A stretch of DNA of 64,000 bases from Candidatus Omnitrophota bacterium (lineage in GTDB: Bacteria > Omnitrophota > Gorgyraeia > Zapsychrales > JAKLDJ01), in assembly GCA_022703585.1 (NCBI GenBank), contig JAKLDJ010000002.1, positions 219,413 to 283,412 on the forward strand. The letters run 5' to 3'. This document shows, one piece after another, positions 12,203 to 29,100 of this stretch; position 1 is the first letter of the stretch, and every line of letters begins with the position of its first letter. Under the pieces are notes generated by a model, which was not told the DNA's origin, did not search any database, and saw nothing but the letters and a program-made list of their open reading frames with translations. The position numbers and the translations under genes are program-made.

Positions 12203-12233
12203 TTGATAAATCTTCTTAAAAAAGGTATATAAT
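12203..12233 (+). promoter_or_regulatory. Strong sigma70 promoter (TTGATA, 17 nt spacer, TATATAAT) for the MEDS gene.
   Basis: The sequence reads cttgataaatcttcttaaaaaaggtatataatat, about 27 nt upstream of the ATG at 12260. Confidence 0.6.
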
Positions 12234-12259
12234 ATATCGGTAATAAGTTTTGGTGAATT

Positions 12260-12823: not shown

Positions 12824-12906
12824 TTGTAGCAGTCATCAAAAAAGGAATAACCTCAAACTCACGTGGGGCCTATTCCCAGATTATTATCCGGTGTCTGCGG
12901 TTTGCC

Positions 12907-13149
12907 CTACTCCACGTCAAACGATACCAATTCCACCCGCCAGCCCGGGAACATAACGACTTCGATTTTAGCGCCTTCCAGCATCGTTCCTTTGGCAAGG
13001 ATAGAAAAAGTTTCCTTAAACGAGCCTTCCATCACGCCCGTGTACTGCCCGACCTTGACCACCACCTTGGTAACTTTTTTAGCCCCTTCTTTCTTGGCGT
13101 GCTCGGTAATGCCGTCAATAATAGGCTGAATCATGTGGGTTTCATGCAT
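12907..13149 (-). CDS. hypA: HypA-like hydrogenase nickel-incorporation protein. It keeps the N-terminal Ni-binding domain only; the C-terminal zinc finger is missing.
   Basis: MHETHMIQPIIDGITEHAKKEGAKKVTKVVVKVGQYTGVMEGSFKETFSILAKGTMLEGAKIEV aligns with HypA residues 1-70 (MHE motif), but the ORF stops at 80 aa with no CxxC pairs. It overlaps the protease gene by 8 nt. Confidence 0.7.
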   Translation of the reverse strand: MHETHMIQPIIDGITEHAKKEGAKKVTKVVVKVGQYTGVMEGSFKETFSILAKGTMLEGAKIEVVMFPGWRVELVSFDVE

Positions 13150-13603
13150 GGGTCAATTCTCCGATTAGTTTCTCCGCCATCTCAAGCGTCTTTTTAACAC
13201 TCTGCGTCATCTCACTCCCGATTTCAATGTCCTGCGGCTGAACACCGAACATATAAATGGCAGCCGATGTCTGCGTTTGCAGATACTCCAAGAACATCTT
13301 TGGCGAAATATCGTGCGTGGTCAAACCGCTTTTTAGAATCTCTTCCTTGCCTAAAATCTCACAGGCACCCGGCGCCATTCCCAAATGCACAGCATCTACG
13401 ATCAAAATCGTGTCCGGGTTTCCTTTAACTATTTTTCCGACAAAACTTTCAGGCGTTGTTCCCGCATCAATACAAACCGCCGGGATTTTTCCGTTGAGTC
13501 TCTGAATCAGCTCCGGGCCAAAGGCATCGTCACCGCGCAAAATATTACCCACGCCGACGATAACAATCCTGCCTTTTAAAATATCTTTAAGGGAATTCTT
13601 CAT
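13142..13603 (-). CDS. Hydrogenase maturation endopeptidase (HycI/HyaD family).
   Basis: The 153-aa ORF has the VGVGNILRGDDAFG motif of hydrogenase C-terminal processing proteases. Confidence 0.85.
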   Translation of the reverse strand: MKNSLKDILKGRIVIVGVGNILRGDDAFGPELIQRLNGKIPAVCIDAGTTPESFVGKIVKGNPDTILIVDAVHLGMAPGACEILGKEEILKSGLTTHDISPKMFLEYLQTQTSAAIYMFGVQPQDIEIGSEMTQSVKKTLEMAEKLIGELTHA

Positions 13604-13635
13604 TTCAGAAAATTATTCAGAAAAGACGGCGTTAA

Positions 13636-14256
13636 CTATTTCGTTGTCAGGGTTGTTTTTCTGCGGCACGGGGCACAAAGAATTTTGACTCTGTCGGAAC
13701 GGCCGTAATCTTTAAGGGCGGAAACAAGATTATCATCGACAATACCCAGGTTTTTAAGCCGCGACAGGTACAAGGTGGGACTGGAATAGGTCAGCTCTCC
13801 CAATCTTTCAGAAATCCATTTTAAATGGTCCTTGCAGGCAATCGGATCCCCACAGACTTCGCATAACTGCAGTTCTTTTTCAATGGTCTCAAAGGATTCC
13901 TTTTTGCGGTCAAAGAAAGAAAGTTCCCACTTGTTTGAAGTTTTAATCCCCTCGTGATTAGAAATGCACGCCGCCTCGCACTGGCCGCAAAAGATGCAGA
14001 TATCCGTATAGTGAATCATGATACGTTTGGCGCTTCCGGCGCGATCGGATAAATCCTTGTGGCTAATCGCCCCAACGGGACAAACCTCCTGGCAGGCCAA
14101 GCACCCGACGCACTTATCCTGATTAAACTCATACTGGCCCCTAAAGTTCGGATGAGGAACATGCGGCTCTTTCGGGAACTTAGCGGTATAGGGCCCTTGA
14201 AAAAGCGCTTTAACCGCCTCAATAATTTCTCTTATTTTAGGCAACTTTATTCTCAT
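13636..14256 (-). CDS. 2x[4Fe-4S] ferredoxin-like subunit of the hydrogenase (MbhN/EchF/NuoI-like).
   Basis: It has CVGCLACQEVCP and CIFCGQCEAAC motifs and is the last structural gene of the Mbh operon. Confidence 0.8.
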   Translation of the reverse strand: MRIKLPKIREIIEAVKALFQGPYTAKFPKEPHVPHPNFRGQYEFNQDKCVGCLACQEVCPVGAISHKDLSDRAGSAKRIMIHYTDICIFCGQCEAACISNHEGIKTSNKWELSFFDRKKESFETIEKELQLCEVCGDPIACKDHLKWISERLGELTYSSPTLYLSRLKNLGIVDDNLVSALKDYGRSDRVKILCAPCRRKTTLTTK

Positions 14257-14588
14257 GCTTCCCCTTCTCTATCTTCGGCATATTGATCGACAACGCTTCC
14301 CTGCCAAAGCTTTACCCCGGCCCGGTGCGCTCCGCGTGACAAGGCATGCGCTAAAACCGGAGCGGTCAAAAGCAAAAATGACATGCACAAAAGCGACTTC
14401 ATCCCCGCGGCGGTAAATCCCATCATCAGGAAAACCCCAAATAGGATACTGCAGGTGCCGGCCGTCACGCATTTGGTAGCGGCCTGCAATCGGTTATAGA
14501 TATCCGGCAGGCGGACAAGGCCCAGACAGCCCAACAGATCAAAGAAAAGACCAATGCCGATAAAAATCAAACCTAATGTACTATTCAT
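14253..14588 (-). CDS. Mrp antiporter subunit G-like membrane protein. The ORF extends to 14657; the likely start MNSTLG is at 14588.
   Basis: A small three-TM protein following the MrpE and MrpF homologs. It overlaps mrpF by 8 nt. Confidence 0.7.
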   Translation of the reverse strand: MNSTLGLIFIGIGLFFDLLGCLGLVRLPDIYNRLQAATKCVTAGTCSILFGVFLMMGFTAAGMKSLLCMSFLLLTAPVLAHALSRGAHRAGVKLWQGSVVDQYAEDREGEA

Positions 14589-14949
14589 CAAACCCTTTTC
14601 CTTCCAGATATTTTGAAAGCGCCAAAATGCTGATAAAACCCTGCAGCGCCCAGGCAATGCCGATATCGATATACCACATCCGTCCCGTGGAAATAGTTAA
14701 AATCGCGCACAAGCCCACGATCATAATTCCTAAAATATCCACCGCCACAATCCTGTCCGCTCCCGTGGGGCCCTTCCAGACCCGGTAAAGGCACAGCAGG
14801 CACGCCAGGATAATGATATACATGGCCCTGCCCATAAATTCTAAATGCGGTAAGTCCGGATAAAAGAGAAACGGCATCGGCCGCACAATAATTAAAGTAA
14901 CCACAGCCGTTAGCGCTACCGCACCGATAAACCATCTGACGATTTTCAT
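14581..14949 (-). CDS. Mrp antiporter subunit F-like (MnhF family).
   Basis: The 122-aa hydrophobic protein carries a DRIVAVD motif. Confidence 0.7.
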   Translation of the reverse strand: MKIVRWFIGAVALTAVVTLIIVRPMPFLFYPDLPHLEFMGRAMYIIILACLLCLYRVWKGPTGADRIVAVDILGIMIVGLCAILTISTGRMWYIDIGIAWALQGFISILALSKYLEGKGFDE

Positions 14950-14958
14950 AAAATATCC

Positions 14959-15456
14959 CTAGTCAAAAATCTTGGTTAATATTCTTTCAAAGCGCCCCAC
15001 CACCAATTTGGTCGCCGCTTCCATATCTTGAGTCTTCACATCGATCCAATGCACATAAAGAATACCTGCCTCACGGTCAATATCCACGACCATCGTTCCA
15101 GGGGTGAGCGTTATCGAACAGCACAAAAATGTCAAAGCCACGTCTGACTTTAGAGTCGTTTTAACCTTAACAATGCCGGGATTAATCGGCAGCCGGGGGT
15201 GTAAAACCCGGATGGCCACGTCAATGTTGGTTTTGACTAATTCCCAGAAAAATATAGGCACATAGCAAAATATAAAATACCACCAGCGGTGAGGATGGCT
15301 AAATCCCGCAGCGCCTTTGGTAAACAGATCCGCCACGATAAAATCAACGAACGCCGCCACCAAGACGCCCACGGTAATATGCTGCCAGTCCGGCGGCCAG
15401 TTTAGGACGCACCAGGTAATAAGACCGACAATGAATAAAACGATTCTTTTTGCCAT
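14959..15456 (-). CDS. Mrp antiporter subunit E-like (MnhE family).
   Basis: The 165-aa ORF has the SITLTPGT motif characteristic of MrpE. Confidence 0.75.
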   Translation of the reverse strand: MAKRIVLFIVGLITWCVLNWPPDWQHITVGVLVAAFVDFIVADLFTKGAAGFSHPHRWWYFIFCYVPIFFWELVKTNIDVAIRVLHPRLPINPGIVKVKTTLKSDVALTFLCCSITLTPGTMVVDIDREAGILYVHWIDVKTQDMEAATKLVVGRFERILTKIFD

Positions 15457-15459
15457 AGT

Positions 15460-16962
15460 CTAAATATGCTGTAAAACCGCAATAAGGTAATCCGCGCTTT
15501 CCGTCATGACGCCAACGGCCTGATTTAAGAAAACGTTTTGGATTCCCGGGATAAGTAAAAGCCCGCCGACCGAGGTTATTAAAGCCAAGGTGATCAAAGA
15601 GAATTTCATCAAAAATGGAACTTCAATAATCTTCTCTAACCCCACCCGTACATCACCCCAAAATGTACATTTCATAGCCTTTAAGAAAGCAGCCAGAGTT
15701 AAGACGCTGGCCACAATTGCCCAAACGGCAGGCCACAACTGCCCCGCCTCGACTGCCGCAAGAATAATAATCAATTTGCTCCAGAAACCTGCAAAAGGCG
15801 GAACCCCCGAAATCGACATGGTGCCGATAATGCTTGTCATGCCGGTGACGGGCATTTTTTTCATCAGCCCTCCCAATTTTTTCATGTCGCGCGTTCCGGT
15901 TGCATATTCAACGGCACCGGCACCTAAAAATAAAAGCGATTTGAATACCGAGTGGTTAAAAAGATGGAACAGGCTTCCCAGAATACTTAACGGCGTTCCG
16001 ATGCCAAAGCCTAAAATAATATAACCCATCTGGCTTATGGATGAATACGCATAAAGCCTTTTTAAATCCCATTGGCCGATCGCTAGAAACCCGCCCACCA
16101 CCATCGAGATGCAGCCTAAAACCATCAGGATCGAGGCTATCGCCGGGGTTACACCGATGACATTACCGAATATTCGAAATATGGTATAAATCCCCAGCGA
16201 TTTAATGAGAACCCCGGACAGCATCGCCGATATAGGTGCCGGAGCGCTGGGGTGCGCATCGGGAAGCCAGGCATGAAAAGGCACCAGGGCTGATTTTAGG
16301 CCAAAACCCATAACAAATAAAACACTGACCAAAAGAATGATATTGCTCGAACCCTTTTGTGCCAATACCGCGGCAATATCAGCCATATTTAAAGTGGAGG
16401 TAAAGCCGTACAGCAGGGCAATGCCCATCAGAACAAATAATGACCCCAAAGTGCTCATGAGCGCATATTTAAAAGCCGCCTCCAACTCATGGCGCTCGAC
16501 GCCAAAGGCAACCAAGGCAAAACTGGCAATGGCGGCGATTTCTAGAAACACGAATAAATTAAAAATATCCCCGGTAACAATAACCCCGTTCATCCCGCCC
16601 AACATCAGAAGAAACAGAGTAAAGAATTTCCATTTAGAAGTAAAATGCTCCATGTATTTAACCGAATAAATCGCAATCATGAGCGCGACCAGATTAACCG
16701 TTACTAACATGAACGCCGTTAGTCCGTCTAAGACCATAGCGATACCGATAGGCGGTTTCCAGGCCCCCACACTATAAACAAGAATGTGGTATTCATTAAC
16801 GAGCTTAAGCGCAAAAAGCGCCGCAATAAAAAGGCCTGCCGTAGATAAAACTCCTAGAAAGTCCGCAAGCCATTTAAGCTTTCGCCCCCCTATGGAAATC
16901 ATAAAAGCGCCGGCTAGCGGCACAATAACGAAAATAGGAATAATGTTGACGGCGGTCGTCAT
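15460..16962 (-). CDS. NuoM/MrpD-like antiporter-type membrane subunit of the hydrogenase.
   Basis: The 500-aa polytopic protein has the conserved proton-pumping-subunit segment SQMGYIILGFGIGT...FHLFNHSVFKSLLFL. Confidence 0.85.
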   Translation of the reverse strand: MTTAVNIIPIFVIVPLAGAFMISIGGRKLKWLADFLGVLSTAGLFIAALFALKLVNEYHILVYSVGAWKPPIGIAMVLDGLTAFMLVTVNLVALMIAIYSVKYMEHFTSKWKFFTLFLLMLGGMNGVIVTGDIFNLFVFLEIAAIASFALVAFGVERHELEAAFKYALMSTLGSLFVLMGIALLYGFTSTLNMADIAAVLAQKGSSNIILLVSVLFVMGFGLKSALVPFHAWLPDAHPSAPAPISAMLSGVLIKSLGIYTIFRIFGNVIGVTPAIASILMVLGCISMVVGGFLAIGQWDLKRLYAYSSISQMGYIILGFGIGTPLSILGSLFHLFNHSVFKSLLFLGAGAVEYATGTRDMKKLGGLMKKMPVTGMTSIIGTMSISGVPPFAGFWSKLIIILAAVEAGQLWPAVWAIVASVLTLAAFLKAMKCTFWGDVRVGLEKIIEVPFLMKFSLITLALITSVGGLLLIPGIQNVFLNQAVGVMTESADYLIAVLQHI

Positions 16963-17297
16963 CCTCTCAAGTCCCTTATCTTGGTGATATCGAACGTTCC
17001 GTATTTCTCGAAAATCCTCATGGCGAGCGCGATCAAAATAACGGTCGTGGCCAAGCCGATAACGATTGAGGTTAAAACAACCGCCTGCGGAAGCGCATCC
17101 ACCATATTGGTAATTTCGGCGTTAGGCGAATAGATCGGCGCACGGCCTTCTATGCGGTAGGCGATCAGGATAAAAAACAGGTTAACCGCGTACTCGGCAA
17201 TAATGACGCCAATGATAATCTTGATAATATTGCGCTTACGCAAAATCCCGTAAAGCCCTACCGAGAAAAACGAAAGGCATAATAGATAAATAGCCAT
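16959..17297 (-). CDS. MrpC/NuoK-like small membrane subunit.
   Basis: A 112-aa protein with three TM helices and gene order consistent with Mrp subunit C. Confidence 0.7.
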   Translation of the reverse strand: MAIYLLCLSFFSVGLYGILRKRNIIKIIIGVIIAEYAVNLFFILIAYRIEGRAPIYSPNAEITNMVDALPQAVVLTSIVIGLATTVILIALAMRIFEKYGTFDITKIRDLRG

Positions 17298-17318
17298 GAT
17301 TTTATTTTCCTGTTTCTC

Positions 17319-17343
17319 CGGGGCGGCCCTCCGGGCCGCCCCG
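17319..17343. repeat. Intra-operonic GC-rich perfect hairpin (cggggcggccc tcc gggccgccccg) between the mrpB-like and mrpC-like genes.
   Basis: An 11-bp stem, sharing its stem sequence with the hairpin at 12015-12040. It sits about 20 nt upstream of the mrpC-like ATG at 17297. Confidence 0.6.
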
Positions 17344-17350
17344 ACAATCC

Positions 17351-17812
17351 TTATTCCTTCTTGTTTTTTTCCGGCTCGTATTTCAATAGAACAAACGCCA
17401 CAAAAATAGCAAAAATCCCCGCGCCGACTTTAAGACTGATAGCCAGATTCAAAAGCGGTATTGTCCCGGCGCTAAACAGATGAAACGGCTCACCCTTGGC
17501 AATGAAATTTAAAAAGAAATATCCTCCGGTAAAACCTAAAAGAGCAATGCTTAATAAAATCAATGCCCCCAAATTTTCAAAAAATGACGTCACCGCTTTA
17601 GGAAGTTTGCTTAAAGCCGTATCCTTCCCGTACGCCAGCATGAGATTAATAAAAGACAAGGCAATAATGACCCCGCCGGCAAATCCTCCCCCCGGCGAAA
17701 CATGACCGTGAGAAAGAATATAAATCCCGTAAAGAAGGATAAACCCGACCGTTAATCTCGCCGTAGTCCTGACGATAACAGACATCCCTGTTTGGCGCTC
17801 TTTACTGCTCAT
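17351..17812 (-). CDS. MrpB (MnhB-domain) membrane protein, MbhF-like.
   Basis: LSHGHVSPGGGFAGG is the MnhB family signature. Confidence 0.75.
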   Translation of the reverse strand: MSSKERQTGMSVIVRTTARLTVGFILLYGIYILSHGHVSPGGGFAGGVIIALSFINLMLAYGKDTALSKLPKAVTSFFENLGALILLSIALLGFTGGYFFLNFIAKGEPFHLFSAGTIPLLNLAISLKVGAGIFAIFVAFVLLKYEPEKNKKE

Positions 17813-18353
17813 CGTTTTCCTCGATCACCTGGTTTTCTTTCTTTCTTCCGGTGCGCCGAACAATAGACATGACACCGACAACCGCCGTAAATAAAACCGT
17901 GGCCTCGCAGAGCGTATCAAAAGCCCTGTAATCAAGGATGATCGAAGCCACCACATTGGTCGCGCCGGTCTGCAGAAGGCCTTCCTTAATATACGTCGCA
18001 GATACCCTCATTAGAGGAGACCCAAACACCGGTAGATCTTTTAGGCATTTTGCCGCCACGGTCAAAAATGTCGCCACAAACGACACGACGACTATCGTAT
18101 TAAAAAACCAGCGGCCTGAAATTGAAAACGGCAAATCGGTTTTTAGCGTTGCCCGGATGAGAATAATCAGCGCTAGCGTTTCAACCACCAGCTGGGTAAT
18201 AGCCACATCCGGGGCTTTAAGAATAATAAATGTCATCGAAAGGCCCAAGCCCACCGCGCCCAAGGCCACAACCGACGACAAAAGATCCTTGGCCTCCAGC
18301 GCAATCACCGCGCCGATGATCATGAATATTAACAGTATGTATAATTCGACCAT
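17802..18353 (-). CDS. MrpA-C-terminal/MrpB-like membrane protein (fused MbhD/MbhE-like).
   Basis: It carries the APDVAITQ and ILDYRAFDTLCE motifs (DUF4040/MnhB domain). Confidence 0.7.
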   Translation of the reverse strand: MVELYILLIFMIIGAVIALEAKDLLSSVVALGAVGLGLSMTFIILKAPDVAITQLVVETLALIILIRATLKTDLPFSISGRWFFNTIVVVSFVATFLTVAAKCLKDLPVFGSPLMRVSATYIKEGLLQTGATNVVASIILDYRAFDTLCEATVLFTAVVGVMSIVRRTGRKKENQVIEENDEQ

Positions 18354-18365
18354 GTTCTTGAGGAG

Positions 18366-20015
18366 TTATTTAAACACAACATAAAAAATAGCCAGCATAC
18401 CCAAAAGACACCAGACCAGATACGTAGGAAGGACACCGTTATGCAAAAACCGCAAGGTCGCGGTAAAACCCGACGCTATCTTCCCTCCCACCTCATAAAT
18501 ATCAAATAGTTTCTTTCCGGCTAACCGATAAATAAATTTTAAAATCCCGACGTCCTGGATGGTATTATAAAATTCAACTCCCGATAACCGCATATCGGCA
18601 TTCTTTTCTAAGAACTCGCCGCCGACAAAAGACTCTGTCCGGCGCGTTTTTGCCATTCGGCCTAGAAAATAAATAATAGCGCCCAAGACGATTGCCAAGA
18701 GAATTAATGTCGTAGCAATTCCAGAATTCCACACGCCGTCAAATGCTACGCCCTCGTTTAAGCTGGGGAAGATAAACATCGTTAAAGGCACCGCATAAGC
18801 AAAAACACCGAAGATAATGCAGAAAACCGCTAGTAATACCGCCGGAAAAAGCATGGTAATGCCGACTTCTTGTTTTTTGTTACCGGCAATAGCCCTTTCG
18901 TTCGAAGGCTGACCCAAAAATATCGCGTGAACCAGTTTCATGAAACTCGCCAATGTCAAAGCACTGCCGAACATCGCCGCCATGAGCCAGACGATCCACC
19001 ATCCGCCGCCATTTTTTCCGAGCTCGATAATCCCCTGATAGATCATCCATTTCGAAGCAAACCCGTTAAAAGGCGGAACGCCCGAGATCGCCAGCGACCC
19101 GATTAAAAATGTTATAAACGTAATCGGCATGACTTTGACAAGCCCGCCCAGCTTCTCCAGGTCCGTTGTCCCGGCCTTTTTTTCCACAGCGCCGCCCGAC
19201 AAAAACAAGCAGGATTTGTAAATCGCATGGTTAAGCATATGGAATATCCCGCCGGCAATACCGAGTGGATTTCCCGTGCCGATCCCTAAAACCATATAAC
19301 CGACCTGGCTGACCGCATGGTAGCCTAAAAGCCGTTTGAGATCGTGTTGTACCAGCGCCATCATAACCGCCGCCACGATCGTAAAGCTTCCTACTCCCAT
19401 CAAAAACATATTCATGGCATCGTTCATCTGAAATATATCCAAAGAAATCCGTCCCAGGAAATAAATCCCCAGGAGCTTATCCAGCGACGCCGGTAAAAAC
19501 GCGGTCACGGGTGTCGGCGCATCCTCGGCCATATCCGGTATCCAGGTGTGAAACGGCATAGCCCCGGCTTTGGCAAATGCACCGATGGCCAATAAAAGAT
19601 ACGCGAGAATAGCAAACTTATTATCGAGCGTAATCGCCAATTCATCCATTTGAAAAGAACCGTTGATAAGCCAAATAAGGGCAACCCCCAAGAGCATGAA
19701 CGCATCTGTTCCTCCGACGATAATCAAAGATTTCCTGGCGGTAGCCGAGGTGCGTTCTTTATTTCCGAATTCAATCAAAAGATAGAGTAAAAACCCTAAA
19801 AATCCCCAAAAGACCACGAAGACAACAAGATTATTGGCAAAGATAGCGCCCAAAGAAGAAATAAGCGTGAGCGCTATATAAAGGTAGTAACGCGCTAATC
19901 CCTTTTGGCCGCGCATGAAGCCGAAAGAATAAACAGCGATTAACACCGTAAAGAACGCGGCAAATGTCCCCACGAAAGCGGAAAAATTGTCAACCTTAAA
20001 CAATTCGCCTAACAT
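18366..20015 (-). CDS. NuoL/MrpA/HyfB-like antiporter-type membrane subunit.
   Basis: The 549-aa polytopic protein has the conserved segment SQVGYMVLGIGTGNPLGIAGGIFHMLNHAIYKSCLF. Confidence 0.85.
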   Translation of the reverse strand: MLGELFKVDNFSAFVGTFAAFFTVLIAVYSFGFMRGQKGLARYYLYIALTLISSLGAIFANNLVVFVVFWGFLGFLLYLLIEFGNKERTSATARKSLIIVGGTDAFMLLGVALIWLINGSFQMDELAITLDNKFAILAYLLLAIGAFAKAGAMPFHTWIPDMAEDAPTPVTAFLPASLDKLLGIYFLGRISLDIFQMNDAMNMFLMGVGSFTIVAAVMMALVQHDLKRLLGYHAVSQVGYMVLGIGTGNPLGIAGGIFHMLNHAIYKSCLFLSGGAVEKKAGTTDLEKLGGLVKVMPITFITFLIGSLAISGVPPFNGFASKWMIYQGIIELGKNGGGWWIVWLMAAMFGSALTLASFMKLVHAIFLGQPSNERAIAGNKKQEVGITMLFPAVLLAVFCIIFGVFAYAVPLTMFIFPSLNEGVAFDGVWNSGIATTLILLAIVLGAIIYFLGRMAKTRRTESFVGGEFLEKNADMRLSGVEFYNTIQDVGILKFIYRLAGKKLFDIYEVGGKIASGFTATLRFLHNGVLPTYLVWCLLGMLAIFYVVFK

Positions 20016-21193: not shown

Positions 21194-21667
21194 TTATACG
21201 CCTCTGTCTCTGATTGCGTTTTTATCCCACTCTTTGTAATCCCGCCTCAAGGGATAAACCCCCTCCGGCCAGTCCTCAGGCAAAAGTAACCTGCGCATGT
21301 CAGGATGATTCTTGAATGTAATACCCAAGACTTCAGTTGTTTCGCGTTCAATCCAGTTAGCGCCTTCAAAATAAGGGGTGAGCGAATCGATTTCCAAATT
21401 CGACTTGTCGAGTTTAATTCTGAAGGTAAATACCGCATCGATTTTATCAAATGTAAAATGATACAGCATTTCCATATGGTCCCGCACATCCACGCCCGAG
21501 GCGGTGTTAAACCGCGCCCCAAGCTCCCTAAAAACATGAAGGACAACACGCACCAGCGCTTCTTTTTTTATTTCGATGTAAATGCGTTTGGGCGACTTCT
21601 CAAAGACTCCGACAATATCTTGTTTAAATCGGTCGGTCAAATCTTTTAAAATTTCAAGTGGGGTCAT
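21194..21667 (-). CDS. NuoC-like hydrogenase subunit (30 kDa family).
   Basis: A 157-aa ORF sitting between the small and large subunits, as in Mbh/Ech/Hyc operons. Confidence 0.75.
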   Translation of the reverse strand: MTPLEILKDLTDRFKQDIVGVFEKSPKRIYIEIKKEALVRVVLHVFRELGARFNTASGVDVRDHMEMLYHFTFDKIDAVFTFRIKLDKSNLEIDSLTPYFEGANWIERETTEVLGITFKNHPDMRRLLLPEDWPEGVYPLRRDYKEWDKNAIRDRGV

Positions 21668-21684
21668 AGCGTATCAGCCTTTTT

Positions 21685-22149
21685 TTATTTCTTGCCTTCC
21701 GAAGTTGCCTTTATCTTTTCGATCAGCTTCACAATACCGGCAATCATGGCCTCCGGCCTGGGAGGGCATCCGGGAACATAAACATCGACAGGAATAACCT
21801 TATCTAAAGGAAGCGGGCAATTATAACTGTTAATATACATCCCCCGCGATAAGGAACATTCTCCCATGGCCACCACAAAACCGGGCTTAGGCATTTGTTC
21901 ATAAATTCTTTTAATGCGCGGGATACATTTACGAGTCACTGAGCCCGTTACTAATAAAACATCGGCATGTTTAATGCTGCCGACCAGCACCATCCCGAAT
22001 CTTTCAATATCATGACGGGGTGTCAGACAATCAATGATCTCAATGTCGCAGTTATTACAGCTTCCCGTCGACATGTGAAATACCCACAGCGATTTTAATA
22101 ATGCCTTTTGCTTTAGATTCATTTTATAAACCCTTAAAAGCCAGCACAA
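21685..22149 (-). CDS. Group-4 hydrogenase small subunit, NuoB-like with a proximal [4Fe-4S]. The start could be the ATG at 22149 or at 22122.
   Basis: It has the cysteine motifs GSCNNCDIE, GECS and GCPP of NuoB/HycG-type small subunits. Confidence 0.85.
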   Translation of the reverse strand: MCWLLRVYKMNLKQKALLKSLWVFHMSTGSCNNCDIEIIDCLTPRHDIERFGMVLVGSIKHADVLLVTGSVTRKCIPRIKRIYEQMPKPGFVVAMGECSLSRGMYINSYNCPLPLDKVIPVDVYVPGCPPRPEAMIAGIVKLIEKIKATSEGKK

Positions 22150-23059
22150 CCGCTAGAATCGCCAGCACCATCACCGGCCCCCAAAAAAACCGGACCGCAT
22201 GATCGATGCGCACGCGCGGGTTGGTATTTTTGATAACAATAATAAGAAACAGGATACCGATATATTTTAACAAGCTGTATAACGCATTAATTCCATCAAA
22301 TCTTAGCCCCCCGAAAAAGATAACAATCAAAAATAGCGGTAAGGTGCACAAAAGCATATTTTTCATCACTTTAAAGATAGCCAAACTCGAACCGGAATAC
22401 TCGATCAAAAGACCGCCGGAGATTTCAGTTTCCGCTTCGGCAACATCAAAGGGTACAAATCCGATTTTTGCCTGCACGCACAGAATTGCGACCACAAACG
22501 CCAACACACCCGATGCGCCACCGCCAAAAACACCGTTTTGCGCCTGAAAACTCAACAACTCGCCGAGCTTAATCGAAAAGCCGCCCTTAATAACCGGCAC
22601 AAACACCGCCAGCAAAAACGGTAATTCATAGCTTAAAATAAGTTTCATTTCCCGCGACGCGCCCAAACTTGCCAGGGGATTGCGCGAGGCAAAGCCTCCA
22701 ATCATCATGCTCATCGACGGGATTGTCAGCAGGTATAACACGACGACCAGATCGCCGATGAATGTTTTGCCAGGATTCAGAGTGTTAACCCACAAAAGCG
22801 TCGAAACCAGCGCCACACTCGCCAGGCCAAGCAAGGGCGCAGATAAAAAAGTTGCCTTGGAAACACCGAAAGGAACGAGTGTTTCCTTGCCCAATAATTT
22901 CACAATATCATAAACCGGCTGCAGCAAAGGCGGCCCCACCCGGTATTGGAGCCGGGCAGTAATTTTACGCTCAAACCAACTGGCCAGGAATCCGACTAAA
23001 GCCGTCACCACAAAACCATAAATAATTAAATAAAGAATGTCACTCATGCCTTTTTCCAT
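22124..23059 (-). CDS. NuoH/HycD/MbhM-like membrane anchor subunit.
   Basis: A 311-aa polytopic protein with NuoH family topology. It overlaps the upstream ferredoxin gene. Confidence 0.8.
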   Translation of the reverse strand: MEKGMSDILYLIIYGFVVTALVGFLASWFERKITARLQYRVGPPLLQPVYDIVKLLGKETLVPFGVSKATFLSAPLLGLASVALVSTLLWVNTLNPGKTFIGDLVVVLYLLTIPSMSMMIGGFASRNPLASLGASREMKLILSYELPFLLAVFVPVIKGGFSIKLGELLSFQAQNGVFGGGASGVLAFVVAILCVQAKIGFVPFDVAEAETEISGGLLIEYSGSSLAIFKVMKNMLLCTLPLFLIVIFFGGLRFDGINALYSLLKYIGILFLIIVIKNTNPRVRIDHAVRFFWGPVMVLAILAVVLAFKGL

Positions 23060-23622
23060 TGCCAGTGCGTCGAGTGCACGATTAAATTATCCCCGACCAG
23101 AAAAGTATTTTCATCCAACTCGATATCGGCGCTTTTTAAGCTTAGGGCCCCATGCGGACACGATGCAATACACAGCGGTTCATCTTTTTGATTCCTTCTA
23201 TCCAAACAAAAATCACACGTATGGACCAAAAGTGGAAGATTCTCGGGATAGATCGTTCCGTACGGACAGGCATGCGAACAGGATTTGCAGCTGACGCAGC
23301 GCATATTGTGCCTGATTAATAACTTTCCCTTATCTTTCTGCTGCTCCAACGCTTCACAAGGACAGGCGTTGACACAATGCGGCTCTTCGCAGCGACGGCA
23401 GACAAGATAATAGGTCGCCAGCTCGGCAACCGAGACAATGCCGTTATTTTGGGGGTGATAAAAATAGCTGCATTTGATCACGCATTCCTCACACTGGCCC
23501 GTTGAGCAGACATCCAGGTCGATGAAAAGGCGCTTATCGGAACCTTTTTGAGGCTCAGGATTCAGTTTGCTCTGATGCAGCTGTTCCGCACTATTTTTAA
23601 AATTATTTGCTTCGTTTCCCAT
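23044..23622 (-). CDS. Poly-[4Fe-4S] ferredoxin-type electron-transfer subunit (HycB/CooF-like).
   Basis: The 192-aa ORF contains four Cys clusters: CSTGQCEECVIKC, CRRCEEPHCVNACP, CVSCKSCSHACP and CDFCLDR...CIASCP. Confidence 0.75.
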   Translation of the reverse strand: MGNEANNFKNSAEQLHQSKLNPEPQKGSDKRLFIDLDVCSTGQCEECVIKCSYFYHPQNNGIVSVAELATYYLVCRRCEEPHCVNACPCEALEQQKDKGKLLIRHNMRCVSCKSCSHACPYGTIYPENLPLLVHTCDFCLDRRNQKDEPLCIASCPHGALSLKSADIELDENTFLVGDNLIVHSTHWQWKKA

Positions 23623-23645
23623 AATCCGATTTACCTAATCATTTT

Positions 23646-24467
23646 CTAATCCCAAATTTCGGGGAAATTCTTTATCTTGTCATAACGAAAAACCGGGCCG
23701 TCCTTGCAGCCGTAATAGGTCCCAATGCGGCAATGGCCGCATTTACCGATGCCACAGGACATATTCTTTTCCATCGAAAGGAAAATGTTATTTTCCTTAA
23801 AACCCATTTCCAAAAGTTTCTTGGTAGTAAATTTCATCATAATCGGCGGGCCGCAAACCACGGCAAAACCCTGCGCATAATCCATATCCACACTGTCTAA
23901 GATCGTCGGGACAACGCCCACTTTGTGATTCCAATCGCTGTCGCCCTTATCTACGGTCAGCTCAACATTTAAATCGCTGCGCTTCGTCCATTCTTCTAAT
24001 TCATTTCTATATAAAAAGTCCTTGGAGGTCTTGCAGCCACCGCGGAAGAATATCTTTTTAAATTGCCCGCTCATGTCAAAAAAAGAATACATGAGACTAC
24101 GGATCGGAGCAAATCCACATCCACCGCCAATAACCACGATCTCTCTCCCTTTAAACTCGTCTAGAGGATATCCCTGTCCAAATGGGCCACGCAGGCCCAC
24201 AATATCGCCGGGTTTTAATTCGTGTATTTTTGCGGTAACCTTGCCCACCTTCATAATCGTTACTTCAATCACATCCGCAACCGACGGCCGTGATGATGGG
24301 GTAAACGGCCCCTCGCCCACGCCGGGGACGGTCAATTCAATAAACTGGCCCGTCTTAAAAGGTATCGGCTCAACAGGCTTAAGCCGCAACGTTTTAATAT
24401 TGGGCGTCTCGGGAAAGATATCCAAGACCTGGGTTTTAATGGGCCTGTAAATATTCGCGCTAGGCAT
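23646..24467 (-). CDS. FAD/NAD(P)-binding [2Fe-2S] oxidoreductase (AsrB / sulfhydrogenase gamma / NfnA / PyrK-like).
   Basis: The 273-aa ORF has a ferredoxin-NADP reductase-like fold and a C-terminal CGIGKCGHCRIG 2Fe-2S motif. Confidence 0.8.
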   Translation of the reverse strand: MPSANIYRPIKTQVLDIFPETPNIKTLRLKPVEPIPFKTGQFIELTVPGVGEGPFTPSSRPSVADVIEVTIMKVGKVTAKIHELKPGDIVGLRGPFGQGYPLDEFKGREIVVIGGGCGFAPIRSLMYSFFDMSGQFKKIFFRGGCKTSKDFLYRNELEEWTKRSDLNVELTVDKGDSDWNHKVGVVPTILDSVDMDYAQGFAVVCGPPIMMKFTTKKLLEMGFKENNIFLSMEKNMSCGIGKCGHCRIGTYYGCKDGPVFRYDKIKNFPEIWD

Positions 24468-25494
24468 TGTTCACTAACCTTCTTAAAACTTTTCGTATAT
24501 CAATCTTCGCCGGACAAGCAGTAATACAACGGCCGCAGCCGGTGCAGGCATACACATTAGAAACTTTGGGGAAAAAGTCAAATTTCTTCTCAAAACGGTT
24601 CCGCAGCCTCATCCAAAGCTTCGGCCGGGGATTTGCCCCACCGGCAACCCGGGCAAATTCTTTGATCATGCAGGAATCCCAAATACGAAACCGCGCCATT
24701 TGTTTTTCGTCCCTTTGGTCAAACAAAAGAAAACAGTGACAGGTAGGACAAATGGTATTGCAGGCCCCGCACTCAACACAGGTCTTGGCTTCGTCGGCCC
24801 ATATTTCGGATTTATAATTACGCTCAATAATACCGCCAAAAAGTTCCTGCGAAGGAACATTATTTTTCTTAATATTCTCCTCTACCTCGAGATGGACCCG
24901 GGCTCTTTGATTTTCTTTTTCCATTAGCTGCCCTTCGCTCGCCTCCTCAAAAAGAGAGGCATTCTTTTTAACAACAGCTTCGCCCTTGCTTGATCCGACC
25001 TTAACCACAAACCCTTCTTCGATCTGGGAAAGATTAATGTCAAAATCTTCTTGAGGATACGGCTTAACACCTAAGGCGAGGCAATAGCAGGTATCAATAG
25101 CGCAGGTACAATCGGCTCCGATAATGAGATTTTCTTCGCGGTTCTTGATATAAAAAGGATCTTTAAAGCCCTGGTCTTTGAAAACAAAATCCTGAACTTT
25201 AAATCCTTTCAAGTCACAGGCCTTAACCCCTACAATCGCAAAAGGCTTGTCCGTCGCGTGGGGAATGGTGTCCTCAAAACCCTTAGCGACAATCTCCTTG
25301 GCTCGGCTAAAGAATGCCTTTAAAGGCTCGAAAGGCCGCACCTCTCCTATGACAACCTCATCCGTAGTCCCTGTATATTTCTTAAAGAAACGATGTTTAC
25401 CTTTTCTAACTGGGACATACACAGCATAATCGGCTGCAATTCCGGAAAGAAACGGCTGGAGATTGTGTTTATTTAAGAAAAGGCTTTTTTCCAT
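24460..25494 (-). CDS. FeS protein of the AsrA / sulfhydrogenase beta (HydB) family.
   Basis: The 344-aa ORF has CVECGACNTICPTC and CTGCGRCITACP clusters in its C-terminal half. It overlaps the AsrB-like gene by 8 nt. Confidence 0.75.
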   Translation of the reverse strand: MEKSLFLNKHNLQPFLSGIAADYAVYVPVRKGKHRFFKKYTGTTDEVVIGEVRPFEPLKAFFSRAKEIVAKGFEDTIPHATDKPFAIVGVKACDLKGFKVQDFVFKDQGFKDPFYIKNREENLIIGADCTCAIDTCYCLALGVKPYPQEDFDINLSQIEEGFVVKVGSSKGEAVVKKNASLFEEASEGQLMEKENQRARVHLEVEENIKKNNVPSQELFGGIIERNYKSEIWADEAKTCVECGACNTICPTCHCFLLFDQRDEKQMARFRIWDSCMIKEFARVAGGANPRPKLWMRLRNRFEKKFDFFPKVSNVYACTGCGRCITACPAKIDIRKVLRRLVNNA

Positions 25495-25496
25495 TT

Positions 25497-25880
25497 CTAG
25501 ACCTTAAAATATTTCTGGATTAAAGGCATGAGCTTCTCGTGCAGTTCGCTTTTTCCGACGTAAGCGCTGATGTCACCGCTTTTAAATACTTCCCGAAAGG
25601 TTGCCGTTTCAAACATCGTAAGGGCAATAATTTTGCAGTCAGGGAGGTACTTTTTTATTTTAGCTGCCGTATCAATACCGTTCATATTCGGCAGCCTGAT
25701 ATCCATGAGAATAATATTGGGTTTTTCCCGCAGGGCCGTGACGATCCCCAACTCGCCCGATGATGCTTCGAATATCTCAAAAGTGCTGTCTTGGGTCTTA
25801 AGATAATCCGCAACCATCTTTCGAAAGTCGTCATAATCTTCGATAAGGAGTATTCTTTTGTCTGTGCTCGCGGCTTTCAT
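25497..25880 (-). CDS. Single-domain (receiver-only, CheY-like) response regulator.
   Basis: The 127-aa ORF has the conserved segment KRILLIEDYDDF...ILMDIRLPNMNGI. Its stop codon is 2 nt from the AsrA-like start. Confidence 0.85.
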   Translation of the reverse strand: MKAASTDKRILLIEDYDDFRKMVADYLKTQDSTFEIFEASSGELGIVTALREKPNIILMDIRLPNMNGIDTAAKIKKYLPDCKIIALTMFETATFREVFKSGDISAYVGKSELHEKLMPLIQKYFKV

Positions 25881-25995
25881 GAATTTTCGGTCTCTAAAGC
25901 GGGGATGCTTATCCTTAAGCTTGGAGGTTTTATCCTATCAAATTAGAGATAAAAATCAAGAATAATCGGTTAAAATACACCCTTCAAAAAACATC

Positions 25996-28203
25996 CTAAC
26001 GGCGCCTGCGGACAACACCTACGGGAACACTCAAGCCAATCATCGTGCCCTTGCCTAATTGAGAATGAATCTTAAATTCACCTCCCAGCAACTTTGTTCT
26101 TTCTTCCATGGTTGAAAGGCCCAGGCCTTGCTGGACATTCTCTTTTTTGTTGACCGAAAAACCTTTCCCGTTATCTTTAATCGTTACCCACAACTGGTCC
26201 TTTTTTCTGTCCATCCGGATATCAACCCGAGAGGCTTGGGCATGGGTAATAACATTGGTCAAGGCCTCCTGGATAATCCGGTAAAAATTAATAACTTCGC
26301 TTTTAAAGACAAGGCGGTCTAAGCGGTCATGGCGAAATTCGATTCGTAAATCCTTGCGCTGCCTAAAATCTTCGACCATCGCCTTCATCGCCGCTGTCAG
26401 CCCTAAAATTTCCAGAGTCGTTGGGCGCAAGCCCGCCGCCAGGTGTCTTGATTTATCGATGATCAGGTCGAGTTGCCGGATAATCCTGGCATGAAACTCT
26501 TTAAGTTTCGCTTTATCAGAATCCGGAACATACATCGAAGACTGGATCATCATTTTTAAGATAGCCAGAGACTGGCCCAGGTCGTCATGAATTTCTCTGG
26601 AAATCCTGGTCCGCTCGGATTCCTGAGCGTTAATAATACGCTGCGGCAGTCCTTTAATCGCCTCTTCCATTTGTTTGCGCTCGGTAATTTCATTACGCAG
26701 CGCTACATACTGGTACGGCTTCCCGCGGTTATTCAAGAAAGGAATGATCGTCGTGTCCAGCCAGTGCAACGAACCGTCCTTGGCCTTGTTGCACATTTCG
26801 CCCTTCCACACTTTGCCGTTTGAAATTATTTTCCACATGTCCCGGAAGAATTCCGGCGGATGGACAGCAGAGTTAAGAATTTTATGATCTTCACCGAGAA
26901 GTTCCTCGCGTGAATATTTAGAAATCTCGCAAAATTTATCGTTAACGTAGGTGATCTTGCCTTCGCGATTCGTAATCGCCACAATGGAAGAAGCATCAAG
27001 GGCAAATTTGATATCCGCAAGTTCCTTGAGCGTTTTCTGTAAAGCCTCGTCCATCACTCGACGCTCGATAAACATGCCTAGCCGCTGGGCAACGGCATCA
27101 ATAAGCTTTCTTTCTTCAGCGGTAAACGGCCCCTCGGACGCGGGAGGCATCTTCTTTAAATAACATACTTCAATGGTACCCGCTTTTTTCCCATGGGCGA
27201 TAATATCGGCACGCTGTACCCAAGGCGTCACCTTGAAATTCTGAGTCTGGTAATTTGTATTTTTAACACTCAGCCGAGCCACCGCAAGATGAGGATATTG
27301 CCAGCTGGACGGTATAATAGAAACAACCTCCCGAAAAGTCTCTTCGCTATCCGGGTATTGCTGTTGACGAATTTCATCAATCCGGTACAGGCAGCTTATC
27401 TCCTTAACCCGCGCGTTCAAGTGAAGCAAAAGCCTCGCATTCTCTTCTTCAGCCTTCTTGCGGTCGGTGATGTCCAGAATAGTGCCCTGATAACCGACAA
27501 TCTGATTTTTATCACCGCGTCTGGCAACGGAAGTGATGAGCGCGTGAATGGGCGTGCCATTTTTCTTCTTTAAAGTGACTTCGTAATTCTCGACGAAATT
27601 ATCCCGCGCAATCCGCTGCATATACTTCTCTCGATGCTGCGGATCGACGTAAATATCAGTAACTTTCGTCTGCAAGAATTCTTCCTTGCTGTCAAAGCCA
27701 AACAGCTTAACCCCGGCATCATTGATATCTACCCAATGACCGTCTTTGGTAGTAATAAAAATACAATTTTGGGATGTTTCAAAGAGAATGCGATAGCGGT
27801 CTTCCTGGACCTGGGTGCGTTGGGTGATATCCCGCGTGATCCCCATGATTCCGACAATGCGCCCTTTCTCATCGCGACGGGGAAGCTTGCTGGTGGAAAC
27901 ATAGTGGCGGGAGCCGTCCGGGCGAGTAGTTTTTTCCAGAGTATCCAGCAAAGGTCTGCCGGTACGCATAACGGCAGCGTCGTCATCGGTCATCTGCCGC
28001 GCCTGCTCAAGCGGAAAGAAATCGAAGTCGGTCTTACCGGCCACCTCTTGAGGTTTTAAGCCCAGGCCTGCGGCATGGGCTTTGTTGACCATGATCAAAC
28101 GGCCTTTTTTATCTTTGAAATAAACAGCGTCGGGAATACTGTCGAAGAGTTCCTGAAGGAGATCGAACTTGGGCTTATCAGAAGGCTGGAAGATGTTTTT
28201 CAT
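25996..28203 (-). CDS. Multi-PAS sensor histidine kinase (HisKA_3 / NarX-DegS type plus HATPase_c).
   Basis: The 735-aa ORF has several PAS/PAC-like segments, the HisKA_3 motif ISREIHDDLGQSL and a C-terminal ATPase (GLGLSTMEERTKLLGGEF). Confidence 0.85.
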   Translation of the reverse strand: MKNIFQPSDKPKFDLLQELFDSIPDAVYFKDKKGRLIMVNKAHAAGLGLKPQEVAGKTDFDFFPLEQARQMTDDDAAVMRTGRPLLDTLEKTTRPDGSRHYVSTSKLPRRDEKGRIVGIMGITRDITQRTQVQEDRYRILFETSQNCIFITTKDGHWVDINDAGVKLFGFDSKEEFLQTKVTDIYVDPQHREKYMQRIARDNFVENYEVTLKKKNGTPIHALITSVARRGDKNQIVGYQGTILDITDRKKAEEENARLLLHLNARVKEISCLYRIDEIRQQQYPDSEETFREVVSIIPSSWQYPHLAVARLSVKNTNYQTQNFKVTPWVQRADIIAHGKKAGTIEVCYLKKMPPASEGPFTAEERKLIDAVAQRLGMFIERRVMDEALQKTLKELADIKFALDASSIVAITNREGKITYVNDKFCEISKYSREELLGEDHKILNSAVHPPEFFRDMWKIISNGKVWKGEMCNKAKDGSLHWLDTTIIPFLNNRGKPYQYVALRNEITERKQMEEAIKGLPQRIINAQESERTRISREIHDDLGQSLAILKMMIQSSMYVPDSDKAKLKEFHARIIRQLDLIIDKSRHLAAGLRPTTLEILGLTAAMKAMVEDFRQRKDLRIEFRHDRLDRLVFKSEVINFYRIIQEALTNVITHAQASRVDIRMDRKKDQLWVTIKDNGKGFSVNKKENVQQGLGLSTMEERTKLLGGEFKIHSQLGKGTMIGLSVPVGVVRRRR

Positions 28204-28254
28204 TCTTTAATGTGGTTTATTCTACAAATACAGAAAATCTTTTCCTCAAATATA

Positions 28255-29100
28255 TTACAGAGCTCTCAGATCCTTGATAAATCTATCCACCGCATCTTCC
28301 CAGGAAGGAATGACGATGCCGAGTTTTTTAGAAATCTTTGCGTTGGACATAAAAGACACCAGCGGCCTTTTGGCCTTGGTCGGAAAATAATCGGAAGGGA
28401 CCGGGATAACGGCATTTTGAAAACCCGATTTCTTCAGAAAACACTTTGCCCATTCATAACGCGAGGCATAGCCATTGTTGGTTAAATGATAGAGGCCTCG
28501 AAGATTTTCCTTAAGGGCCCGCATGGTGACATCGACGATATCCTTGGTATACGTCGGCACGGATACCTCATCGGCATTAATCTTAAGAATAGCGTCTTTC
28601 CTCGCCCATTGACGGACCTTGTAAAGAAAATTCTGTTTTCCTCCGCCAAAGACCCAGCTTAAGCGAAAAATAAGAAACTTATTTAAATGTCTTCGAACGG
28701 CCAACTCGCCTTGCAGCTTGCTTAAGCCATATTTATTGATTGGATGAGGCCGGTCGTTTTCGTTGTAAAAATCTCCCTTTTTACCGTCAAAAACATAATC
28801 GGTGCTGTAATGAACGAGAAGGATCTTCTGCAGCCGGCACACAAGCGCCAGATTTTCGACCGCGGAACTATTCACCCGGAAGGCTTCGGAAGATTTTCCT
28901 TCAGCATCGTCCACAAAATTGTAGGCCGCGCAGTTAAAGATAACAGCGGGTTTAAATCGGGAAACAACATCCTGAGTTTTCTTAAAATCCGTTATATCCA
29001 GTTGGGTTTCGGAAGGCGCGGCGAACTTGATTTTCTTGCTGCGGAAAAACTTTTGGAATTCTTTAGCCAATTGCCCGTTAGATCCAGTTATTAAAAACAT
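28255..29100 (-). CDS. rmlD: dTDP-4-dehydrorhamnose reductase.
   Basis: MFLITGSNGQLAKEF and the overall 281-aa sequence are typical of RmlD/RfbD. Confidence 0.85.
   Translation of the reverse strand: MFLITGSNGQLAKEFQKFFRSKKIKFAAPSETQLDITDFKKTQDVVSRFKPAVIFNCAAYNFVDDAEGKSSEAFRVNSSAVENLALVCRLQKILLVHYSTDYVFDGKKGDFYNENDRPHPINKYGLSKLQGELAVRRHLNKFLIFRLSWVFGGGKQNFLYKVRQWARKDAILKINADEVSVPTYTKDIVDVTMRALKENLRGLYHLTNNGYASRYEWAKCFLKKSGFQNAVIPVPSDYFPTKAKRPLVSFMSNAKISKKLGIVIPSWEDAVDRFIKDLRAL

Follow-up and report, generated by a model that had tools for sequence, protein, structure and literature searches.

A Hun-family, Mrp-linked group-4 [NiFe] hydrogenase with an AsrAB-like flavoprotein module in an Omnitrophota genome

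The hun operon and its closest known counterparts

The DNA considered here, a window of 64,000 nucleotides (nt) from contig JAKLDJ010000002.1 of a Candidatus Omnitrophota bacterium (assembly GCA_022703585.1), carries an operon for a membrane-type group-4 [NiFe] hydrogenase joined to a pair of genes resembling asrA and asrB. Twenty consecutive genes occupy the minus strand from 12907 to 28203, and their families, assigned by Pfam and NCBIfam profile searches (with PDB sequence matches for hunA, hunB, and hunG), agree throughout with those given in a preliminary description made from the sequence alone (Table 1). Sixteen of them, closely spaced at 13636 to 25494, make up hunA to hunP; hycI and a truncated hypA come after these, and the genes for a response regulator and a sensor kinase come before. 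We gave the letters A to P by gene order, as we infer them from the published description of the Hun system discussed below.

The same preliminary description had read the 14 genes from 13636 to 23622 as a complete energy-converting group-4 hydrogenase, and all the families of such an enzyme are indeed present. The large subunit, HunG, has the motifs RICGICSTSH (L1) and DPCYCCTER (L2), the latter kept in 55 of the 59 family sequences over which it was counted, and past the Arg it bears a 35-residue tail that aligns with the HycE cleavage site (CTDR/M). Its best matches among solved structures are MbhL (6cfw_L; 2.6e-86, 293 bits), HycE (6.5e-81, 275 bits), and MbsL (3.3e-48), and the group-3 ShyA/HydA models give only 29 to 42 bits. 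As far as sequence can tell, nothing is missing from this Mrp-linked group-4 [NiFe] hydrogenase: its Ni-Fe ligands are intact, its tail can be cleaved, and a cognate endopeptidase, HycI, is encoded with it.

The maturation genes are close by. The hypA open reading frame (ORF) keeps the N-terminal MHE nickel-binding start and lacks the zinc-finger (CxxC...CxxC) half of the protein, and a three-frame translation past its end gave no continuation in any frame. The hypFCDE genes lie about 6 kb downstream of the operon, with HypC beginning MCLAVPG. Together with the cleavable tail of HunG, the nearby HycI, hypA, and hypFCDE genes argue for a hydrogenase that would be matured and active.

The preliminary description had the AsrAB-like genes coupled to the rest by 8-nt overlaps; this is right for hunA and hunB, which overlap by 8 nt, and wrong for hunB and hunC, which are separated by 23 nt. 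The overlap between hunC and hunD is 16 nt. Two of the listed ORFs most likely begin at internal ATG codons. For hunE, we prefer the ATG at 22122 (145 aa) to the TTG at 22149, because homologues are 140 to 143 aa long and begin 1 nt past the preceding gene. For hunO, we prefer the ATG at 14588 (111 aa) to the TTG of the ORF listed to 14657; read this way, the gene overlaps hunN by 8 nt, and the homologue in locus L002 likewise has 111 aa. A scan of 11800 to 28600 for sigma-70 promoters and intrinsic terminators gave counts near the shuffled expectation and marked no informative site at the operon boundaries.

Table 1. Genes of the hun locus and the associated maturation genes in the 64,000-nt window
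Gene	Position	Strand	Product	Length (aa)	Family evidence
Sensor histidine kinase	25996–28203	−	Sensor kinase, outside the conserved Hun operon	735	Several PAS-family domains, HisKA_3, HATPase_c (Pfam)
Response regulator	25497–25880	−	Receiver only, no output domain	127	Pfam Response_reg only; best NCBIfam match, receiver part of NarL
hunA	24460–25494	−	AsrA/sulfhydrogenase-beta-like multi-[4Fe-4S] protein	344	Fer4_22
hunB	23646–24467	−	AsrB/sulfhydrogenase-gamma-like flavoprotein	273	FAD_binding_6, NAD_binding_1, DHODB_Fe-S_bind
hunC	23044–23622	−	CooF/HycB-like poly-ferredoxin, four Cys clusters	192	Fer4_11; NCBIfam DmsB/HydN/HybA-type matches
hunD	22124–23059	−	NuoH/MbhM-like membrane subunit	311	PF00146, 1.2e-60
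hunE	21685–22122	−	NuoB-like hydrogenase small subunit	Likely 145	PF01058; NuoB family above NCBIfam cut-off
hunF	21194–21667	−	NuoC-like subunit	157	PF00329
hunG	20009–21193	−	[NiFe] hydrogenase large subunit	394	PF00346, PF00374
hunH	18366–20015	−	NuoL/MbhH/MrpA-like antiporter subunit	549	Proton_antipo_M, Proton_antipo_N
hunI	17802–18353	−	MbhD/MbhE-like subunit	183	PF13244, PF20501
hunJ	17351–17812	−	MnhB/MrpB-like subunit	153	PF04039
hunK	16959–17297	−	MrpC/NuoK-like subunit	112	PF00420
hunL	15460–16962	−	MrpD/NuoM-N-like antiporter subunit	500	Proton_antipo_M, 2e-71
hunM	14959–15456	−	MrpE-like subunit	165	PF01899
hunN	14581–14949	−	MrpF-like subunit	122	PF04066
hunO	14253–14588	−	MrpG-like subunit	Likely 111	PF03334
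hunP	13636–14256	−	NuoI/HycF-like 2x[4Fe-4S] subunit, Cys-rich C-terminal extension	206	Fer4_7; NCBIfam HycF/NuoI-type matches
hycI	13142–13603	−	HycI-type hydrogenase maturation endopeptidase	153	PF01750; TIGR00072, 108.7 bits (cut-off 47.45)
hypA (truncated)	12907–13149	−	HypA fragment	80	HypA profile positions 1–68 of 112 only
hypF	4885–7221	−	[NiFe] maturation		Pfam
hypC	4602–4880	−	[NiFe] maturation		Pfam
hypD	3464–4591	−	[NiFe] maturation		Pfam
hypE	2406–3467	−	[NiFe] maturation		Pfam

Among characterized enzymes, the Pyrococcus furiosus Mbh (group 4d, PDB 6CFW) has the closest solved large subunit, although HycE is near. Both Mbh and the window enzyme have a NuoB/C/D/H/I-like core and a Mrp-like sodium/proton module, the design of an H2-evolving, ion-translocating complex. 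The gene orders are different, however, and L2 reads DPCLSCTDR in Mbh instead of the DPCYCCTER of the window HunG. Mbh has 14 subunits and takes ferredoxin directly, with no CooF-like or flavoprotein subunit, whereas the window locus has three additional conserved subunits, HunA, HunB, and HunC, that are translationally coupled to the core. It is reminiscent of the Escherichia coli formate hydrogenlyase (FHL, PDB 7Z0S) and the Mrp-linked, formate- or CO-respiring Thermococcus enzymes Mfh and Mch (groups 4a and 4b), in which a HycB/CooF-like poly-ferredoxin joins a soluble substrate-oxidizing module to the core. The FHL large subunit HycE, second closest of those solved, also shares the C-terminal cleavage context and the HycI protease. 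The partner in those enzymes is a molybdopterin formate dehydrogenase or a carbon monoxide dehydrogenase, whereas in the window it is a FAD- and NAD(P)-binding pair like AsrAB or HydBG.

Although the preliminary description presented this arrangement as novel, it had been reported several times before, and the locus is a member of a published and named family. Carnevali et al. (2019) described an "enigmatic" group-4 hydrogenase, akin to enzymes of Zixibacteria and Omnitrophica, with Mrp subunits and an "oxidoreductase module" made up of cooF, asrA, and asrB. Méheust et al. (2020) reported an Elusimicrobia enzyme of "Mbh-Mrp-oxidoreductase type" whose function they called unknown, and in a sediment metatranscriptome Bird et al. 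(2019) found an Atribacteria hydrogenase co-transcribed with the adjacent oxidoreductase. The 16-subunit operon was named Hun by Glass et al. (2021) from Atribacteria/Firmicutes metagenome-assembled genomes (MAGs) of methane hydrates, with Omnitrophica, Elusimicrobia, Bacteroidetes, and cultured Kosmotoga given as carriers. These authors placed HunG in HydDB group 4g, yet on a branch distant from other 4g enzymes, and considered CGIC in L1 with CYCC, instead of CxxC, in L2 to be diagnostic of Hun. A search of the literature on Kosmotoga and Atribacter for data on the function or expression of Hun gave none beyond Glass et al. (2021) and Bird et al. (2019). The published Staphylothermus genome, considered as a source of a module of this kind, proved irrelevant.

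The window locus has the same 16 genes in the same order as the published Hun, the CGIC/CYCC signature, the AsrAB-like pair with no AsrC, the Mrp module, and the terminal NuoI-like subunit. It differs in having a PAS-HisKA_3 kinase and a receiver before hunA, where many relatives have rex or a ferredoxin gene with a NIL domain, and it lacks the molybdopterin protein that some published Hun MAGs encode between hunB and hunC. It is otherwise an ordinary member of the family.

The HunAB pair and its conservation across relatives

To see how the operon is kept elsewhere, one genome per GTDB species was scanned with an alignment of HunA (beta), which gave at least 541 relatives; the best 80 loci were retained, and a synteny matrix was made by tblastn of the 20 window proteins against them. 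The nearest relatives are overwhelmingly Candidatus Omnitrophota, with identities of 65 to 72% for HunA and 80 to 83% for the large subunit. Essentially all of the 80 loci that are long enough to show it keep the order hunA-B-C-D-E-F-G-(Mrp), which holds down to 40% HunA identity. The genes hunA and hunB overlap in 68 of 79 loci (median, −8 nt), as do hunC and hunD in 54 of 71. This synteny and the conserved stop/start overlaps indicate that the AsrAB-like pair is an integral, co-inherited part of the operon, as had been claimed for it, and on the same statistics we rejected a chance adjacency of hunAB to the hydrogenase. Fusions joining HunA, HunB, or HunC to other subunits were sought in the syntenic loci, and none was found; apparent read-throughs are confined to the core (NuoH-NuoB in two loci, NuoC-large subunit in one, and large subunit-MbhH in one).

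The best 80 of the at least 541 relatives already span at least 10 phylum labels. By their labels, the carriers belong to Omnitrophota, Elusimicrobia, Atribacterota, Spirochaetota, Nitrospirota, Sumerlaeota, Hydrogenedentota, Fermentibacteria, Clostridia, and Desulfobacterota, with several MAGs labelled Planctomycetia. There is a cultured carrier among these loci, Desulfosarcina variabilis str. Montpellier (L030), with its hun locus at about 6.09 to 6.11 Mb of NZ_CP159846.1.

Searches of the hunAB segment (23646 to 25494) with hidden Markov models (HMMs), proposed in the preliminary description, matched the AsrA/AsrB and HydB/HydG models with every score below the equivalog cut-off. HunA scored 196.9 bits against ShyB (cut-off, 690), 162.4 against HydB (750), and 132.3 against AsrA (TIGR02910; 323.15). 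The best NCBIfam match of HunB was AsrB (TIGR02911), at 240.6 bits against a cut-off of 288.6; HydG gave 186.8 (650) and ShyC 175.8 (600). Because these values are well below the cut-offs, HunAB is a separate branch of the superfamily and not a sulfhydrogenase or sulfite reductase subunit pair.

Sequence matches to solved structures point to what the pair may do. The whole of HunA aligns with the P. furiosus sulfhydrogenase I beta subunit (9nez_B; E = 3.7e-42), cysteine ligands in register, and 16 Cys are invariant in the alignment of its family. The match of HunB, likewise over the full length, is to the gamma subunit of the same enzyme, which binds NADPH (9nez_C; E = 2.2e-54); the FAD segment, the glycine-rich NAD(P) loop, the CGPPxM motif, and the [2Fe-2S] cysteines are all in register. 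Across 74 HunB sequences the FAD-site motif PFTPSS is invariant, and the GGGxGxAPxR and CGPPxMM motifs and the [2Fe-2S] core CG-GKCGHC are nearly so, with the patterns kept in all of the motif variants listed. Such conservation across many phyla suggests that HunB is a functional nucleotide-binding flavoprotein and not a passive wire. The basic residue of its FRGGC(K/R) motif aligns with an Arg of P. furiosus HydG and is reminiscent of the GCR motif in diflavin reductases that depend on NADPH, and no call between NADH and NADPH is made from it. What sets the pair apart from sulfhydrogenase I (group 3b, 9NEZ), despite these shared ligands and motifs, is its partner: a soluble group-3 delta/alpha dimer in that enzyme, and in the window a membrane-bound group-4 core, with a CooF-like protein in between.

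Upstream regulators and the electron donor of Hun

The gene directly upstream of hunA was recorded in a census of 70 loci. A rex gene on the same strand holds this place in 15 loci by Pfam and 17 by tblastn, mostly within about 55 nt of hunA, and the encoded Rex proteins score above the NCBIfam cut-offs (264 bits). A palindrome resembling the Rex operator (consensus TTGTGAA-N4-TTCACAA, with up to 3 mismatches) lies 1 to 51 nt upstream of rex in 15 of the 17 rex-hun loci (L001, L004, L005, L010, L011, L013 to L015, L017, L019, L021, L028, L052, L054, and L071; at 9338 to 9355 in L010, for example), against a background of 1.4% per 220-bp window. We found no mention of this association in the Hun literature. 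The presence of rex and its operator suggests that many relatives express hun under the control of an NADH/NAD+ sensor, and such control would suit an enzyme whose role is to relieve over-reduction of pyridine nucleotides. In 15 loci of a divergent Omnitrophota clade (L055, L057, L061, L064, L065, L067, L068, L073, L075, L078, and L081 among them), hunA is preceded by a gene for a 135-aa ferredoxin with a NIL domain and two [4Fe-4S] clusters; in L052 and L054, such a gene precedes rex-hunA.

The window has no rex, and its matches to the Rex operator (four at 3 mismatches, against 3.8 expected) include none near the operon start. Read directly, the junction upstream of hunA is as first described, the regulator ending 2 nt before the hunA ATG and the kinase gene lying 115 nt from the regulator; no inverted repeats were found in this 115-nt spacer. 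The weight that the preliminary description placed on the embedded regulator was not borne out, for the pair is kept only in the closest relative, L084 (HunA 90% identical; regulator-hunA spacer, 56 nt), and neither protein has a tblastn match beside hunA in the other 83 loci. Response_reg is likewise not among the recurrent families in the upstream census. On the simplest reading, the kinase and receiver are a lineage-specific replacement of the regulatory input, in the slot filled by rex in relatives. The receiver may act on the enzyme, on transcription via a partner, or as a phosphate sink; control of Hun at the protein level by phosphorylation, as had been implied, is pure conjecture. A second output-less regulator, a 267-aa protein with two receiver domains and no recognized output domain, is encoded at 37832 to 38635 on the minus strand.

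With regard to function, we rank first, with a probability of roughly 55%, the proposal that Hun would be an NAD(P)(H)-coupled, ion-linked membrane [NiFe] hydrogenase. HunB, with its FAD and [2Fe-2S] cluster, would exchange hydride with NAD(P)(H), and electrons would pass from the FAD to the [2Fe-2S] cluster, the HunA clusters, the four clusters of HunC, the two of HunP, and that of HunE to reach the Ni-Fe site of HunG. On the model of FHL and the CO-linked enzymes, the CooF/HycB-like HunC would form the link between the soluble HunAB module and the NuoI-like subunit. The reaction NAD(P)H + H+ ↔ NAD(P)+ + H2 would thereby be coupled, via HunD and the Mrp-like HunH to HunO, to movement of H+ or Na+ across the membrane. 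The enzyme would probably either spend the ion gradient on turning surplus NAD(P)H into H2, aided by a low H2 pressure or by extra ferredoxin, or work in the opposite direction and conserve energy as an H2:NAD(P)+ oxidoreductase; it might also take ferredoxin in addition to NAD(P)H. We infer the assembly of the subunits, NAD(P)H as the substrate, the direction, and the translocated ion alike. The general plan would be that of complex I, in which electrons from a pyridine-nucleotide dehydrogenase module pass along an Fe-S chain to a NuoB/C/D/H/I core that carries antiporter-like subunits, except that the input module of the window is unrelated to NuoEFG and the terminal site is an intact Ni-Fe center, not a quinone pocket.

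Several considerations weigh against this proposal, and most of them favor the published alternative that Hun works with ferredoxin only. Production of H2 from NAD(P)H is endergonic under standard conditions (E0′, −320 versus −414 mV) and comes near equilibrium at about 10 Pa H2; being uphill, NAD(P)H-driven H2 evolution would, under most conditions, be unable to export ions as well. A complete Mrp module would be easier to understand with a donor of low potential, such as ferredoxin. Because Rex is known to control ferredoxin-dependent hydrogenases too, in other bacteria, the Rex link is suggestive only. Two gene associations hint at ferredoxin involvement, namely, the NIL-domain ferredoxin upstream of hunA in the 15 divergent Omnitrophota loci and a pyruvate:ferredoxin oxidoreductase about 1 kb past the hypA end of the operon. 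The donor that Glass et al. (2021) proposed is ferredoxin and not NAD(P)H; HydDB annotates group 4g as putatively ferredoxin-coupled, and Williams et al. (2021) annotated Omnitrophota enzymes as group 4g, Mrp-linked, H2-evolving, and ferredoxin-dependent. On this account HunABC would wire electrons from reduced ferredoxin to the Ni-Fe site, H2 evolution would drive H+ or Na+ export as in Pyrococcus Mbh, and the NAD(P) site of HunB would be vestigial or regulatory. The near-invariance of the HunB FAD and NAD(P) motifs would be unexpected of a vestigial site, and the closest solved homologue of HunB is an NADPH-binding subunit. AsrB is a flavoprotein of NAD(P)H type (Pfam NAD_binding_1), which is at odds with the premise that AsrAB draws on ferredoxin, and Mbh takes ferredoxin without any flavoprotein. 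We favor the NAD(P)H link for the sake of the HunB motifs and of rex and its operator in relatives, and we consider the ferredoxin-only account unlikely, though it deserves to be taken seriously.

A three-way junction would combine both donors. Ferredoxin would enter at HunP or HunC, and its electrons would be split between H2 and, via HunAB, NAD(P)+; or else ferredoxin and NAD(P)H would be oxidized together for H2, so that one complex would take the roles of Mbh and of an Rnf- or Mbx-like ferredoxin:NAD(P)+ oxidoreductase. The locus does encode a pyridine-nucleotide module alongside an entry of ferredoxin type at HunP/HunC, like that of Mbh and FHL, Bird et al. (2019) suggested "ferredoxin or NADH" as the donor, and such a junction would square the energetics with both Rex control and the conservation of the NAD(P) site. 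The locus lacks a bifurcating flavin subunit of NfnB or HydABC type, however, and the HunB FAD is of the non-bifurcating PyrK/NfnA/HydG type; we regard it as distinctly improbable. The preliminary description had proposed either an NAD(P)H-linked or an electron-confurcating hydrogenase. The former stands as plausible (HunB-9nez_C alignment, near-invariant motifs, rex in relatives), and the latter was given low weight for want of a bifurcating-flavin subunit; the locus has no bifurcating flavin site of NfnB or HydB type. HunAB might instead serve sulfur chemistry, as a sulfite or polysulfide reductase module like AsrABC or sulfhydrogenase that sits beside the hydrogenase for that reason or by chance. 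The best-scoring HMMs are named for AsrA/AsrB and for sulfhydrogenase beta and gamma subunits, the Salmonella AsrABC has a similar two-protein electron input (an Fe-S protein and a FAD/NAD/[2Fe-2S] protein), and possible reduction of sulfur compounds was mentioned by Bird et al. (2019). Yet both HunA and HunB fall below all of the equivalog cut-offs, and strict synteny with overlapping stop/start codons excludes a chance adjacency to the group-4 genes. The nearby asrC gene that the preliminary description named as a sign of an unrelated sulfite reductase did not appear, there being no AsrC/NIR_SIR domain among the ORFs of at least 150 aa in the window, nor was any AsrC or other siroheme gene inserted between hunB and hunC in the 80 syntenic loci, where the widest gap is 440 nt. 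A role in sulfur chemistry is therefore very hard to credit.

The NAD(P)H-coupled reading can be taken further, if only tentatively and with some doubt, to a respiratory coupling site: Hun might be a Na+- or H+-translocating NAD(P)H:H+ or H2:NAD(P)+ oxidoreductase in which a flavoprotein module of sulfhydrogenase type takes the role of NuoEFG, with the PAS kinase and single-domain receiver replacing Rex in this lineage. Were this so, fermenters could vent NAD(P)H as H2 on the ion gradient, or hydrogenotrophs could conserve energy from H2-dependent NAD(P)+ reduction, and such a coupling site would be widespread in Omnitrophota, Atribacterota, Elusimicrobiota, Spirochaetota, and some Desulfobacterota. 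Hun enzymes occur in hundreds of species (the at least 541 relatives) of uncultured anaerobes, which are dominant members of communities in the subsurface and in sediments. In published models these enzymes produce H2 from ferredoxin. If the NAD(P)H link is real, the metabolic reconstructions of Omnitrophota, Atribacterota, and others would change, and the evolutionary series that leads from Mbh to complex I would gain a new combination of modules. What is new here is the family-wide conservation of the nucleotide-binding motifs, the association with rex and its operator, and the cultured carrier D. variabilis, which together with Kosmotoga makes the question of the electron donor of Hun testable.

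Variant loci and other genes of the window

Some of the 80 loci depart from the usual layout. In five Spirochaetota loci (L023, L026, L036, L037, and L053) and in L044, the Mrp module lies upstream of hunA and is divergently transcribed, and the genes for the NuoI-like subunit and HycI come straight after that for the large subunit; L044 also has NuoH relocated behind HycI. The Omnitrophota locus L001 (CP070780.1, 1 to 12198) has rex-hunABCDEFG followed by unrelated genes (B12/radical SAM, glycosyltransferase), with no adjoining Mrp or NuoI-like genes, and may represent the complex in a split or minimal form. Immediately upstream of hunA, L022 and L070 carry a second group-4 hydrogenase cluster, of Ech-like type (the L022 large subunit is 45% identical). 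L027 has a second, distant beta/gamma pair upstream of hunA (27% and 40%), and L014 and L017 have an additional gamma-like gene (27 to 29%). In L012, from an Elusimicrobia fen MAG, a single 3255-aa ORF (98 to 9865, plus strand) ends 136 nt upstream of hunA.

Within the window, the pyruvate:ferredoxin oxidoreductase noted above, a single chain of 1196 aa, is encoded with a 366-aa DHO_dh-like protein at 7308 to 11914 on the minus strand, between the hun operon and hypFCDE, and puts a ferredoxin-reducing enzyme within the hydrogenase gene neighborhood. A MEDS-domain (DcmR-type sensory) protein at 12260 to 12823, one of the rare plus-strand genes, is convergent to the end of the hun/hycI/hypA cluster. 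Farther away, two minus-strand segments (48698 to 50368 and 55471 to 58927) encode a hybrid-cluster protein (Prismane), a rubrerythrin, a flavodiiron-type protein (ODP plus flavodoxin), and an FNR-like FAD/NAD reductase, a cluster of oxidative- or nitrosative-stress type. Genes of carotenoid type at 50873 to 54445, also on the minus strand, encode a lycopene cyclase domain, a phytoene/squalene synthase, and an amine-oxidase-type desaturase in what is apparently the genome of an anaerobe. Over the whole window (1 to 64000), nearly all ORFs of at least 150 aa are on the minus strand and the GC skew is negative in every 2-kb bin, which is consistent with a single replichore with a strong gene-strand bias.

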